A DNA stretch of 64,000 nucleotides, taken from assembly GCA_964016885.1 (NCBI GenBank), contig OZ024765.1:16182001-16246000 (forward strand), written 5' to 3'. The stretch is from Eledone cirrhosa (lineage: Eukaryota). Below the pieces are notes generated by a model. The model was not told where the DNA came from. It did no database searches and saw only the letters and a list, made by a program, of their open reading frames with translations. The number at the start of each line of letters is the position of its first letter. Positions within the stretch are counted from its first letter, which is position 1. Below are positions 1,661-48,701 of the stretch, piece by piece. A program made the position numbers and the translations under genes.

Positions 1661-1846
1661 AGAAAAGCTTCTACAGGACTAGAACTGGTTCATTCGTTAG
1701 AAATCCTCATGAGCTTCGTGATGATTTCTCACGAATAAAACAGTTCTAGTGCTGTAGAAGCTTTTCTATTTTAAATATTTATAATCTGCGTTGTATTGAG
1801 TATCTTACTTACTGTGGTTAACCCCGATTGAACCCGGGATAAACTT
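1661..1846. mobile_element. Family A fold-back hammerhead mini-element, diverged copy
   Basis: Inverted repeat 1661-1768 followed by a unique tail to 1846, with (TA)n on both sides. HHR cores are mutated (GTGATGA, TAAAAC). Confidence 0.7.
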
Positions 1847-1860
1847 ATATATATATATAT

Positions 1861-2071
1861 ACGTTATTCTGGGTTGAATCGGAGGTAACCACAGTAAGTA
1901 AAGTACTCAATACATAGCAGAGTATAACAGTTTTAATATAGATGAGATTCTACAGGACTAGAACTCTTTCATTCTTTAGAAATCATCAGGAATCTGAGCC
2001 AGATTCCTGATGATTTCTAAAGAATGAAACAGTTCTAGTCCTGTAGAATCTCATCTATATTAAAACTGTTA
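1861..2071. mobile_element. Family A fold-back hammerhead mini-element (PLE pLTR-like)
   Basis: Tail 1861-1925, then a near-perfect palindrome ~1925-2071 centred near 1998. The same family occurs at 33590 and 48507. Confidence 0.85.
2001..2051 (+). ncRNA. Type I hammerhead ribozyme motif (family A)
   Basis: AGATTC-CTGATGA-tttctaaagaat-GAAACAG-ttctagtc-CTGTA-GAATCT. Stems I and III pair perfectly; predicted cleavage after GUA (2045). Confidence 0.8.
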
Positions 2072-2273
2072 TGTAATAAACATCATAACATCATTATTTC
2101 ATTTAACGTGCCTGACACTAAGGTCTGACATCGGTCGTCCTTTATATATATATATACATTTAATTGTATATATATATATGTATATATATATATATATATA
2201 TATATATATATATATATATATATATATATATATATATATATATATGTAATGTGGGTGGTATTAAATACCATCG

Positions 2274-2335
2274 AATTACTCCGAAGATGACGGTCTTGTG
2301 TTAGAATGAAACAATCGTAAGTTATTTAATGTTCT
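2274..2335 (+). ncRNA. Degenerate hammerhead motif in a ~120-bp island within (TA)n
   Basis: AATTACT-CCGAAGA-...-GAAAC-aatc-GTA-AGTTATT. Stem I pairs 6/7; the core carries U4->C and stem II is poor. Confidence 0.45.
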
Positions 2336-3874
2336 AAGCACTCCCTGATTGCTGTTAATGAAGTATATATATATATATATATATATATATATATATATAT
2401 ATATATATATATATATATATATACAAAGCTGTATATGTGTGTGAGAGAGATAGTGTGTTTGTATATGTGTGTTGTTTTCATAGCAGTAATACTTACATTC
2501 AAAATTTTTCTAAACATATCAGTTAGATTAGGCGCCATAAAACACTTGTATAATTCGTTTTCAAAAATTTAACACAGCTTTCAAGCTATATATTTTTATT
2601 GATAATTTTCCCGACCGTTAATGTGTGTATATATTTTACGTACTTTTATAATTTTACGATAATTTAAAATTATTTTTTGACTCCATTTTCTTCACTTATC
2701 GAATTGTCGTTTTATAATGTTTGGTTTGGTTTCACTAGATCACAGTTTTAGTTACGATATATATATATATATGTAATATATATATATATATATAATATAT
2801 ATATATATATATTACATATATATATATATATAATATATGTATATATATAATATATATATATTATATATATATTACATATGTGTTTTATTTATATATATAT
2901 ATATATGTATTATATATAATACACACGTATATATATATTGTATATATATATGTGTATTATATATAATACATATATATATATAAATAATACACATATGTAA
3001 TATATATATAATATATATATATATATATTATATATATATTACATATGTGTATTATTTATATATATATATGTATTATATATAATACACACATATATATATA
3101 CTATATATATATATATTATATATATATATATATATGTATAATATATATATATATAATAAATATATATATATATGTGTATATATATATACTAAATATATAT
3201 ATGTATACTATAAATCTATAATATATATATAATAAATATATATATCTGTATATATATGCTTATATATATATATATATATATATGTGTGTGTGTATATATA
3301 TATATACTAATATATATATACATATATATATATATATATATATATATTAGTATATATATATATACATATATATACAAATCCTAATTAAAGCCAATGCGGG
3401 ATAAGAAAATAATGAACCACTTTAAGTGTAGCTACAGTACTGAAAATAAAGAAATAATTTAAGTTTGCAAACAATTAACAAAAACAATAAAAGGTAATAA
3501 GAAAAAAATATTAAAAATATTAAAATAGGGAAATAAAAAAAAATTTTAAGAAAAAAATGAAAATTAAATATAATAAAAAAAAAATGACATTGAAATGACA
3601 ACAAAATTGAAAACTAAAATAAAATAAATTAAAAATAAAATAAATTAAAATGAAAGGATGATAAAATTTTCGATGAATAATTAGAAAATAACAGAAAAAT
3701 CGAAGCGAAAAATCAAAAATAAATACCAACATATGTCCTTGTATCGAATTTCTGGGATGTAATTTTCTGTTTATTTAATTTATTATTTTTAATCATCATT
3801 AAAATTCAATCTTACCTCATGTTATTACTTAATTTTCACGCATTTTATTCTTGTTTACCCTTCACCGCCCTGTA

Positions 3875-4765
3875 CGTTGATGTTGGTGTTGTTATTGTGT
3901 TTATGTGTTGGTGGTGTTGTTCATGTGTTTATGTGGCTGTTGATATTGTTGTTGTGTTTATGTTGTTGGTGTTGTTGATGTGTTTATGTTGATGTTTGTA
4001 TTGTTGTGTTTCTGTGGTTGTTGCTGTTATTTATTGAGGTTTGTGTTGTTGTTGTCGATGTGTTTATTGTGGTTAGTGTTGTTGTTGTATTTATTGTGTT
4101 TCTGCTGCTGCTGTTCTTGTTGTTGTTGTTGTGTTAGTTGTGGTTTGTGTTGTTGTTGTTTTTGTTAAAATGTTGTGTTTATTGTGTTCCTGCTGTTGCT
4201 GTTGTTACTTTTCTTGTTGTTGTTGTTCTTGTTGGGCTTCTTCTTGTTGTTGTGGCTGTTGTTCTAGTTGTTGTTACTGTGGTTTGTGTTGATGTTGATG
4301 CTGTTGTTGTTGTTGTTGTTGTTGTGTTTATTGGTGTTTGTGTTATCGCAGTTGTTGTTGTTCTTCTTGTTGATGTTGATGCTGTTGTTGTGTTTATTGT
4401 GGTCTCTGTTGTTGTTGTTGTCTTTATTGAGGTTTGTGTTGTTGTTGCTGTCGTTGCTGTTGTTGTTGTTGTGTGCATTGTGTCTGTTGCTGATGTTGTT
4501 GTTGTATTTGTTGATGTTGATGGTGATGATAATTATGATGTTGATGGTGTTGATGGTGATGATAATTATGATGTTGACGGTGATGATGTTGATGATGTTG
4601 ATGAAAGTAATGGTGCTGCTGCGGACGGCGATGATGATGATTATAGTGATGATGATGGTCATGATGGTGATGATGATGAGGATAATGATGTCACAGTTGT
4701 TGTTTATTTGTATTTGCTTATCCTTGTTGTTGTTGTTGTTCTTGTTGTTGTTGTTGTATTCTTTG
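3875..4765. repeat. Low-complexity (GTT)n/(GAT)n tract
   Basis: Degenerate trinucleotide repeats that produce the poly-V, poly-L and poly-T pseudo-ORFs. Confidence 0.9.
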
Positions 4766-4814
4766 GTGACGCTACTATATTATTATTTTAATTTAAATTA
4801 TTATTTTAATTTAA

Positions 4815-46595: not shown

Positions 46596-47096
46596 CGTCC
46601 ATTTTAAGATGTGGGGTGGTTGATTTTTTGTCGTGGCACCACCACGACCACTTTACAGTGGGTGGGGTGGAGGTATATTGTTTATATGCTTTAGTTTCGG
46701 CTTGTACTCGTGGGAAATCGGGACTTCTGTATTACTGCGTGACGCCAGAGGTCACGGTCCCGTGTAATCGCCTTTGAGAGGTGCAATTAGGTAAGGTCGG
46801 CTTTTATCACCTCATCCCACCTCTTCTTGGGTCTCCCCAACCCGCGGCTCCCATCGACTTCTAGTGCTCTGCACCTTTTTATTATATACTACAGTATATA
46901 TATATATATATATATATATATATATAATATATATATATATAATATATATTGTGGTGTATATAGTTTTTATATATATATATATATATATATATATATATAT
47001 AATATATATATATATAATATATAAAAACTATATACACCACAATATATATTATATATATATATATATTATATATATATATATATATACATTATATAG

Positions 47097-47270
47097 GTTC
47101 TACTTTTTGCACAAGGCCAGCGAATACCCAGTGCATCACTGGTACTTTATTTTATCGACCCCGTAAGGATGAAAGACAAAGTTAACCCCCGCGGATTTGA
47201 ACTCAGAACACAAAGGGCCATAACTCTATGCTGCAAAGCATGGTGTCTGGCGCGCTACCGATAGTGCCGT
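47097..47270 (-). mobile_element. MetaSINE-type SINE
   Basis: Same family, moderately diverged. Confidence 0.85.
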
Positions 47271-47844
47271 ATACACTATATATATATATATACACACACA
47301 CACGCATACACACCCACAGAAAAGAATAAACGAGTCTTCTTCTCATCGTGACACAGTCACACACAATGTACCCATCCTTTAAATATCCCTATTTTGCAAG
47401 AGTGACTTTTACACTTCCAACACCAGATCTTAGTCTCTTGAGGCATTTCCACACTGCATAATTTGTATCTGTTCCAGGCGAGTAGCGCCTCGCTCGCCTT
47501 TAGCTCCATTGTTGTTGCTGATGGAAGTCTGTTTATTTTTCTACGCACCGAATGAGTCTTTCACTAGTTATGCTCGTTGTGTCAAGGGACGTGACGAATG
47601 TGCTTTTGGTTTTAAGACGGATTTTGGATAGCACATGATGGAAGAGCGTATGTTTTTGATCGGCAGTCTGCTGCTGGTGCTATTTCTTGCTTGCTGCCCT
47701 TCGTCCTATCTCTGGTGGGGGCTATGCTGAAAATCTAAAGGTTAAAGTCTTCATTTCATTTTTGTTTATTCCTTGTTTTATTCCATTTCATAGTGTGTTT
47801 TGTTTTTCTTGTATACTAAAGTCTACGTTGTCTCAATCTCGGAG

Positions 47845-47982
47845 AGACATCAGGCCAGTGTTAACCCCGGTTTCCGTGGCATGAAGCGACTGAGAGTAGA
47901 AGACTTCCCCCTGGATAGGACGCAAGCCCATCGCAGCGTCAAATCCCCAGCTATTACTTTGGTTACCCGCAATTGAACCCAG
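47845..47982 (-). mobile_element. Deleted copy of a second tRNA-SINE family (as at 62615-62875)
   Basis: CAGGCC..ACCCCGGTTTCCGTGGC..CGACTGAGAGTA..CCTGGA is the reverse complement of 62790-62855. Confidence 0.7.
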
Positions 47983-48322
47983 CACTCACACACACATGCG
48001 CGCACACACACACACATACACCCACGCCCTTAAACACACGCACACACACATACATATATACATGAGGCCCGAGTTCAATATGTGTATGTATGTGTATATG
48101 TACGCTCTCTTAGTCTGTGCAAATATGTGTGTGTGTTATTATGTGTATTATGCTACGTACTTCTATGGCTTTAATTAAATAAGGCTGTGTGTGTGTATGT
48201 GTGTCTGTGTTTGTGTGTGTATGTGTGTGTATGTGTGTCTGTGTGTGTGTATCTGTATCTGTCTATGGTTATGCTTAGGGAAACATACATAAACTATGAT
48301 GATGTATATATATATATATATA

Positions 48323-48477
48323 TCCCCCACACACCCTCAGAACTCTCTTCTCACCCAATTTTCGTCTGAAGAAGGGCTAATGCCCGAAACGTCCCCTCCC
48401 CCAACTCTCAACAGCGTGAAACTAATACACCTTTGTTTGTTCTGCCTCTCTGTTTTGTTCCCGTTCCATTTTTCACT
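48323..48477 (+). mobile_element. PLE-type 3' end with classical minimal hammerhead core
   Basis: CTGAAGA-A-GGGC(taat)GCCC-GAAACGTC at 48366-48393, with palindromic ACGT stem III. The stem I partner appears lost. (TA)n flanks. Confidence 0.7.
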
Positions 48478-48506
48478 ATATATATATATATATATATATA
48501 TATATA

Positions 48507-48701
48507 AGTTTTAATATAGATGAGATTCTACAGGACTAGAACTGTTTCATTCTTTAGAAATCATCAGGATTCCTGATGATTTCTAAAGAATGAAACAGTT
48601 ATAGTCCTGTAGAATCTCATCTATATTAAAACTTTTATACTCTGCTATGTATTGAGTACCTTACTTACTGTGGTTACCTCCGATTCAACCCGGAATAACG
48701 T
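48507..48701. mobile_element. Family A fold-back mini-element; + strand HHR at 48568-48616
   Basis: Palindrome 48507-48633 centred near 48570, plus a tail identical to 33730-33793. Confidence 0.9.

Follow-up and report, generated by a model that had tools for sequence, protein, structure and literature searches.

The window analysed here, a stretch of 64,000 nt of the Eledone cirrhosa contig OZ024765.1, contains twelve fold-back palindromes in which, according to a first-pass annotation, an antisense hammerhead ribozyme on the left arm always precedes a sense one on the right, and it raises the question of what imposes this order, the manner of insertion or selection acting on the ribozyme. 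All 12 palindromes were found at the annotated positions and in all 12 the 5′ sides meet at the centre (Table 1), the sense of each element being set by its hammerhead (families A, B, D and F) or by a Penelope-like element (PLE) ORF found further upstream in the same orientation (families A, C and E). They are short, 5′-truncated insertions of PLEs into (TA)n and represent six repeat families, and hence are not independent; moreover, finding the antisense arm first on either strand is just the meaning of a head-to-head arrangement. One pair in the opposite order is also present in the window. A Pfam search of 15 window ORFs, picked from 219, gave no match, and a reading frame of 1284 aa was rejected as a gene, the frame being a 129-bp satellite.

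Table 1. Palindromes, opposite-order pair and single-arm copies in the window; numbers in brackets after a family are the positions used in the first-pass annotation, and "exact" refers to the CUGANGA core.
Feature	Position	Arms and tails	Hammerhead core and remarks
Family A palindrome (1661)	1666..1842	short arm 1666-1712 (-); tailed arm 1716-1842 (+)	two cores, both mutated; exact core absent
Family A palindrome (1925)	1864..2072	tailed arm 1864-1991 (-); short arm 2005-2072 (+)	exact in both halves, 1989 (-), 2007 (+)
Opposite-order (tail-to-tail) pair	1716..1991	1716-1842 (+); 1864-1991 (-)	two separate neighbouring family A insertions, TA run between
Family B palindrome (8259)	8259..8485		exact in both halves, 8346 (-), 8403 (+); exact pattern pair unique to this genome site
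Family E single-arm copy	16256..16330	(-)	
Family C palindrome (27717)	27631..27802	left-hand tail 27631-27709	no CUGANGA core
Family C palindrome (27963)	27886..28076	left-hand tail	no CUGANGA core
Family D palindrome (29352)	29354..29799	29354-29529 (-); 29626-29799 (+); spacer unpaired	exact in both halves, 29451 (-), 29704 (+)
Family E palindrome (32410)	32350..32556	32410-32484 (-); 32486-32556 (+); tail extends left, left edge approximate	CAGAAGA variant replaces core
Family F palindrome (33128)	32931..33282	tailed arm 32931-33214 (-); short arm 33215-33282 (+)	no hammerhead inside
Family D single-arm copy	33393..33525	(+)	hammerhead unmasked, core 33438
Family A palindrome (33589)	33590..33790	short arm 33590-33651 (-); tailed arm 33664-33790 (+)	exact in both halves; left-arm core mutated, exact match there from a duplicated centre piece
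Family C palindrome (43197)	43120..43309	perfect 55-bp arms, no spacer; left tail 43120-43200	no CUGANGA core
Family D palindrome (43876)	43788..44055	(-) arm with full hammerhead; (+) arm stops just past core	exact in both halves, 43883 (-), 44048 (+)
Family A palindrome (48507)	48507..48697	short arm 48507-48569 (-); tailed arm 48571-48697 (+)	exact in both halves, 48567 (-), 48573 (+)
Family D single-arm copy	57886..58028	(-)	hammerhead unmasked

The first-pass annotation had proposed a genome-wide count as a check on the stereotyped polarity, and the count bears it out: exact-pattern searches for families A, C, D and E found 22,225 pairs arranged head-to-head and 766 arranged tail-to-tail, the arms pointing 3′-outward in 22,225 of 22,991. 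Family C is the largest (18,009 versus 622), followed by family A (1968 with gaps ≤30 nt versus 27 with gaps ≤260 nt), family E (1465 versus 112) and family D (783 versus 5). For family B the patterns were too specific for counting (one head-to-head pair, no tail-to-tail), and for family F a search restricted to the head-to-head order returned 30 pairs. Half of the family C motif matches (36,018 of 72,003) lie in tight palindromes; in samples of 30 matches, an inverted partner within 60 nt was found for 19 in family C and for 10 in family A, the other 20 family A matches having none within 1.5 kb. Most of the tail-to-tail pairs that were sampled consist of two insertions on one common TA run. 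Among 25 such pairs of family C, 24 have a TA spacer and in 21 at least one arm has a head-to-head partner of its own; near-identical arms were seen in 5 of the 25, versus 23 of 35 head-to-head family C pairs (Fisher p = 0.0006; 15% under random pairing).

Motifs in the associated ORFs identify families A, C and E as pLTRs of PLEs that encode a reverse transcriptase (RT) with a C-terminal GIY-YIG domain. At three loci (L126-L128) a family A pLTR and its inverted copy accompany an ORF with an RT-type YRDD motif and GIY-YIG; Pfam PF01541 scored above cut-off in one of five ORF pieces, and since no Pfam RT match was obtained in the ORFs, the RT assignment relies on the YRDD motif. Families C and E have related ORFs upstream, in the same orientation, and none could be tied to families B, D and F. 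The inverted pLTR is 2-7 kb away from the direct pLTR at L127-L131, and at L128 the tail continues into the ORF leader. The ORF has 684 homologues of about 700 aa; a PDB sequence search with it gave no match. The family A motifs (RWR, DKT, CxCx5C, CxxC and CxH, read at L128) match the definition of the Hydra clade, in which this family may be placed by motifs, and similar linkers were read in the ORFs of families C and E. The likeness extends to the C-terminal GIY-YIG, the RW(K/R) and DKT motifs with the CxCx5C linker, CxxC and CxH, the short ORF, the preference for (TA)n targets and, in family A, the hammerhead (PMC8557442). Members of that clade include Hydra-1_Obim of Octopus bimaculoides and Penelope-13_HM, which has an inverted 5′ copy (PMC8557442). 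However, canonical hammerheads are described as universal in the Hydra clade (PMC8557442), whereas the core is lost or changed in Eledone families C and E, and the hammerhead listed for Hydra-1_Obim is unlike those of families A-F in sequence.

The head-to-head polarity is real, genome-wide and already known in kind for PLEs, which carry an inverted 5′-truncated copy at the 5′ end and use (TA)n targets (PMC8557442); head-to-head is the most frequent arrangement and the tail is found on one inverted pLTR (PMC3846280). In Pen2a and Pen3a of the rotifer Adineta vaga (PMC3846280; scheme in PMC8557442), as in Eledone, the inverted 5′-truncated copy at the 5′ end forms a head-to-head junction, the tail is on one inverted pLTR and the pLTR contains a TATA box. 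Unlike them, most Eledone copies are pLTR-only palindromes of 110-450 bp, present in tens of thousands, with a tail of about 65-90 nt versus 30-40 nt. What is new here is the scale, fold points about 30 nt past a TATA box, the restriction of the tail to one arm and arms that are not nested.

The annotated asymmetry between a long arm with a tail and a shorter arm is stereotyped in families A and C. Of 50 family A loci, 46 have a long arm that terminates at position 125-126, and most short arms stop near 48-65, where they meet the TA flank; in family C, exactly one arm bears the tail in 31 of 35 loci, both arms in none and neither in four. A C/A difference between long and short family A arms was rejected as an artefact of query selection, the unbiased set having C on both arms in 44 of 50 loci. 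In family A loci chosen for gaps ≤30 nt, 98 of 100 arms end ≤9 nt upstream of the motif, mostly 4-8 nt, with a TATA box some 38 nt upstream. The fold point, about 30 nt past the TATA box, lies near the likely transcription start site; a polypyrimidine run followed by AG, seen by eye, suggests that the 5′ boundary could instead be a 3′ splice site. Among 20 non-palindromic matches, six begin at about the family A fold point, right after TA. The arms are often not nested: of 84 scored loci, 20 have a tailless arm that extends ≥10 nt further 5′ than its partner and 21 have a tailed arm that does so, the other 43 being scored as equal, many because the alignment runs through the fold (a further 5 of 89 loci, with equal 3′ ends, were skipped). 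Considering only fully explained spacers, the tailless arm is the further one in 15 loci and the tailed arm in 12. At L128-L131, the tailless arm is far longer, with a long extension on the ORF side.

The first-pass annotation had attributed the polarity to a stereotyped PLE insertion mechanism, a proposal that is supported and largely in print (PMC3846280; PMC8557442). The head-to-head order of these 5′-truncated insertions into (TA)n was probably forced by target-primed reverse transcription. A strand extended from a target 3′-OH would copy the RNA from its 3′ side; each primed strand would start with antisense sequence, so that the 5′ ends would meet in the middle, and a tail-to-tail product would be impossible from one such event. 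The version that we favour, with the case for it about evenly balanced, is twin priming. In this scenario, both strands of the TA run would be nicked by the element protein and two cDNAs would be primed on the RNA, one from the fixed tail end, located some 50 nt ahead of the ORF, and one from an AU-rich stretch that pairs with (TA)n and lies 65-90 nt closer to the 5′ end. Each would extend to the RNA 5′ terminus, close to the probable start site some 30 nt past the TATA box, and the two would then be connected by microhomology of 1-2 nt or by short inserts. In LINE-1 twin priming, the opposite target strand likewise serves as a second primer, annealing at an internal site, and a head-to-head junction with microhomology results, the two parts covering different stretches of the RNA; in Eledone, in contrast, both arms cover one and the same stretch. 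A PLE protein, that of PAc Poseidon, nicks and extends both strands of AT-rich targets in vitro, uses two internal RNA start sites that define the tail, thereby matching the tailed and tailless ends described here, and is predicted to dimerise (PMC11167929). PAc Poseidon differs in belonging to another clade, and inverted products were not reconstituted in that study (PMC11167929).

The polarity would be identical if a single target-primed cDNA, begun at the tail, ran off the RNA 5′ end, folded on itself through a 2-bp stem and was copied back, the second arm joining the other target end via TA microhomology. We consider this snap-back route somewhat unlikely, and yet several observations speak for it: 2-bp stems with loops of 3-4 nt can be drawn at recurrent junctions, more often when the tailed arm is placed first, and many junctions fit a 2-bp hairpin primer equally well; subfamily letters are common to the arms of one palindrome, as in the 23 of 35 pairs that agree within one mismatch; and two rare variants are common to both arms. 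Among tight palindromes of family A, the tailed arm is the further one in 28 loci, versus 17 for the short arm and five ties (p = 0.14), a slight lean to snap-back. However, snap-back requires a later deletion in roughly half of the resolvable loci, those whose tailless arm extends further 5′ than the tailed one, and for the long ORF-side extension at L128-L131. Uneven loss of sequence, at a later time, from the tip of an initially perfect palindrome would likewise yield non-nested arms in a ratio of about 50:50, so that non-nesting is compatible with snap-back. Nor does spacer size discriminate between snap-back and end-joining, as the bases that close the loop may be paired fortuitously. Taking the fold points, the one-arm tail and the non-nested arms together, the evidence tilts in favour of priming from the two target strands.

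Self-priming on an antisense template, put forward for rotifer PLEs to explain their head-to-head junctions (PMC3846280), is in keeping with the central spacers of 0-2 nt present in 63 of 185 loci. It is nevertheless improbable here, as the fold points lie about 30 nt past a TATA box on the sense strand and it is sense RNA that is copied from internal sites in vitro (PMC11167929).

The annotation had placed a hammerhead in both arms of all 12 palindromes. This holds for six, which have an exact CUGANGA core in both halves, and the other six have it in neither (Table 1); palindrome 33128 is devoid of a hammerhead because its fold point sits 3′ of the family F hammerhead. Features of type I hammerheads (CUGANGA and GAAA cores, stems I-III and a cleavage triplet) were recognised by eye or by descriptor in elements of families A, B, D and F; an Rfam search returned nothing at the gathering score, and an E-value scan returned microsatellite noise among the 150 matches listed of 672. 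The short PLE-derived type I hammerhead sequences are akin to non-LTR retrozymes (bioRxiv 10.64898/2026.07.22.740005), but the palindromes, in which a dimeric ribozyme cannot fold in cis, are inverted dimers rather than tandem arrays; the tandem-unit feature of retrozymes was found solely in a head-to-tail 78-bp array of family A on contig C28.

The annotation had also suggested that the antisense arm could trap the ribozyme and spare host pre-mRNA. Trapping is physically plausible: folding of whole palindromes is predicted to bury the core in four of four, with an unpaired probability of 0.0 versus 0.47-0.83 in single arms. In addition, a preprint reports that tandem retrozymes are depleted in Xenopus introns. 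As the cause of the polarity, maintained by selection, trapping is very improbable and host protection has little support: family C, without a CUGANGA core near the fold, shows identical polarity and outnumbers family A in palindromes, and 33128 holds no ribozyme. Unmasked single arms are common, as in the partnerless family A matches above, and three occur in the window, two with a hammerhead. Moreover, the hammerhead of family A has a weak predicted fold (about -4 kcal/mol), published animal PLE hammerheads cleave little or not at all as monomers, and their cleavage can require the element protein (PMC11167929). Masking of the ribozyme in read-through RNA is likely a by-product of the fold-back, as it would be a side effect under twin priming.

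Sequencing or assembly fold-back artefacts are extremely improbable: few reduced-representation short reads span the 48507 centre (6 and 10, versus about 1600-1800 on the arm), and the two contigs of run X1, which may be the source sample, that cross it have <31 letters on one side, but 24 substitutions are private to one arm (47 loci × 30 columns), arms end at fixed but different sites with different flanks, some palindromes are split by later insertions (L002, L127), and PLEs in other animals have been described with the same layout.

The origin of tandem and inverted PLE structures is regarded as an open problem (PMC8557442), and this genome supplies short natural junctions by the tens of thousands, with fixed tail ends and fold points, a number sufficient to discriminate among twin priming, snap-back and antisense self-priming. 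If transcribed, the tight family C palindromes would be strong ADAR or Dicer substrates; inverted Penelope copies have been linked to siRNAs (PMC3681739), and unusually high dsRNA potential and hyper-editing are reported for octopus (PMC5625713). A bolder and rather doubtful proposal is that the mini-palindromes, over 22,000 in number, were left by twin priming in which a Penelope-like RT-endonuclease copied one RNA stretch two times, primed by both strands of a TA run. Under this proposal they would also be a main source of near-perfect dsRNA in Eledone, and so may drive the exceptional A-to-I hyper-editing reported for octopus.

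Dinucleotide microsatellite makes up about 17 kb of the 64-kb window (on contig C26, OZ024765.1, of the 3.0-Gb assembly). With microsatellites masked, self-comparison recovered all 12 palindromes listed by the first-pass annotation, and in all 12 the 5′ sides of the elements are centrally placed, as had been proposed. The 12 form six mutually unrelated families, A to F. The further claim, that each arm holds a hammerhead ribozyme, held only in part: in six palindromes the exact CUGANGA core is present in both halves, and in the other six it is found in neither. The core is absent near the fold in family C, CAGAAGA occupies its expected place in family E, and the family F element carries its complete hammerhead upstream of the search motif, at a distance of about 85-170 nt, so that the copy at 33128 folds 3′ of it. 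One pair of opposite order in the window consists of two adjacent insertions flanking a TA run.

Palindromes (approximate starts) and other repeats of the window, in window coordinates
Feature	Position	Remarks
Family A palindromes	1661, 1925, 33589, 48507	
Family B palindrome	8259	
Family C palindromes	27717, 27963, 43197	
Family D palindromes	29352, 43876	
Family E palindrome	32410	
Family F palindrome	33128	
Opposite-order pair	1716-1991	
Further inverted pair	44176-44830	44213-44422 with 44520-44740, then hammerhead-like core at about 44779; additional to the 12
Small fold-back, 42 bp	50992-51033	within another repeat, which recurs at 15217-15287
SINE-like repeat, about 200 bp	34475-34935, 49081-49634	about 40 more pieces in the window; frequent short tandems; inverted pairs in either order
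Tandem repeat, 129 bp	35120-38896	29 copies, 98% matches; one frame open over 1284 codons, no Pfam match for that frame

Head-to-head polarity (5′ sides at the centre, 3′ sides outward) is a real, strong and genome-wide pattern. Counting with exact 15-mer patterns for families A, C, D and E, with reversed-pattern controls at zero, gave 22,225 head-to-head against 766 tail-to-tail pairs (A, 1968 against 27; C, 18,009 against 622; D, 783 against 5; E, 1465 against 112); the ratio for A is conservative, since its gap limit was tighter for head-to-head (30 nt) than for the reverse order (260 nt). Palindromes contain half of the family C motif matches. Among the family C pairs fetched (25 of the 622 tail-to-tail and 35 of the 18,009 head-to-head), a TA spacer was present in 24 of the 25 tail-to-tail pairs, and in 21 at least one arm had a head-to-head partner of its own; arms at most one mismatch apart were seen in five of these 25, versus 23 of the 35 head-to-head pairs. 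For family A, 11 of 15 tail-to-tail loci had a TA spacer and four an arm with its own partner; the four spacer-less loci may be true exceptions or rearrangements.

The family A ORF carries RWR, DKT, CxCx5C, CxxC and CxH motifs, a set that matches the Hydra clade of Penelope-like elements (PLEs) (PMC8557442). The supplement of that paper includes a Hydra family from octopus and an element of the clade bearing an inverted 5′ copy. Related ORFs lie upstream, on the sense strand, in families C and E, whereas families B, D and F, with no ORF ties, are assigned solely by their hammerhead, their tail and the TA that flanks them. All of the Hydra clade is described as having canonical hammerheads, unlike the situation in family E and in family C, the most abundant family (72,003 motif matches), a coreless PLE terminal repeat (pLTR; window 27631-28076, 43120-43309; loci L156-L185). 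Long GT/TA microsatellite tracts separate ORF end from pLTR in six family A elements (L007, L008, L013, L020, L127 and L128), L127 also having a LINE insertion; at L003 a LINE fragment adjoins the pLTR. On contig C28, at about 30.58-30.87 Mb (L257-L266), a 78-bp unit with the entire family A hammerhead forms a head-to-tail array, which probably explains 3,144 surplus plus-strand motif matches. The array is similar to a retrozyme-type satellite with its origin in a PLE pLTR.

Of the 1968 palindromes of family A, 50 were sampled in genome order: the long arm terminates at position 125-126 in 46 of them, and the short arm usually stops around 48-65, directly followed by TA. The tail, carried by the long arm, leads into the leader of the ORF at a point about 50 nt short of the first ATG; in family C, 31 of 35 loci have it on a single arm and none on both. 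Centrally, 98 of 100 family A arms break off no more than 9 nt before the motif, some 30 nt past a TATA box, and six of 20 non-palindromic matches begin near the same fold point, immediately after TA. This stop is likely the RNA 5′ end, but may be a 3′ splice site. Of 89 loci from families D, E and F, five were skipped; the arm that extended further 5′ was the tailless one in 20 and the tailed one in 21, the other 43 being equal or unresolved. At family A junctions (L031-L045, L091-L125), the 5′-most base to be copied is often succeeded, on the antisense strand, by a C that is not native, as RNA-cap copying would give, an observation confounded by overlap with the other arm.

By analogy with target-primed reverse transcription, a DNA strand extended from a target nick along sense RNA would start with antisense sequence from the RNA 3′ side; were each strand so primed, the 5′ ends would have to meet internally. 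We favour priming of both target strands, because in many palindromes neither arm is nested within the other, the tail lies on one side only, and in vitro both strands are nicked and extended by a PLE protein, with two internal start sites (PMC11167929). Snap-back with a later, uneven deletion at the palindrome centre, or antisense self-priming (PMC3846280), may also have produced the arrangement. Protection of host pre-mRNA through ribozyme masking, suggested by the first-pass annotation, is unlikely. Masking itself is likely real, since the core is buried in the predicted folds of all four whole palindromes tested, and a host cost finds partial support in the depletion of tandem retrozymes from frog introns (preprint, bioRxiv 10.64898/2026.07.22.740005). 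Masking does not account for the polarity: palindromes are more frequent in coreless family C than in hammerhead-bearing family A (19/30 versus 10/30 sampled), single arms without masking are common, the predicted fold of the family A hammerhead is weak, and cleavage by animal PLE hammerheads is slight in monomers (PMC4209133) or depends on protein (PMC11167929). Independent short reads in public data seldom cross the palindrome centre, but a sequencing or assembly artefact is made unlikely by arms that have diverged from one another and end at fixed, unequal sites, and by later insertions interrupting some palindromes.

The stereotyped insertion proposed earlier agrees with PLE behaviour already on record: head-to-head is the most frequently observed inverted arrangement, with a tail on one inverted pLTR (PMC3846280), and an inverted 5′-truncated copy, tail and (TA)n targets have been described (PMC8557442). 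A literature search, with subscription journals mostly outside its coverage, found no count of such mini-palindromes in cephalopods, and a 2026 paper on Octopus vulgaris repeats contains neither 'palindrom' nor 'ribozyme' in its main text. For octopus, a high potential for dsRNA is reported together with hyper-editing, the source repeats not being named (PMC5625713), and Penelope inverted copies have been linked to siRNAs (PMC3681739). Such polarity was already known for Penelope-like insertions, the scale here being unusual, and the palindromes are useful material for the question of PLE insertion and possibly for that of octopus dsRNA.
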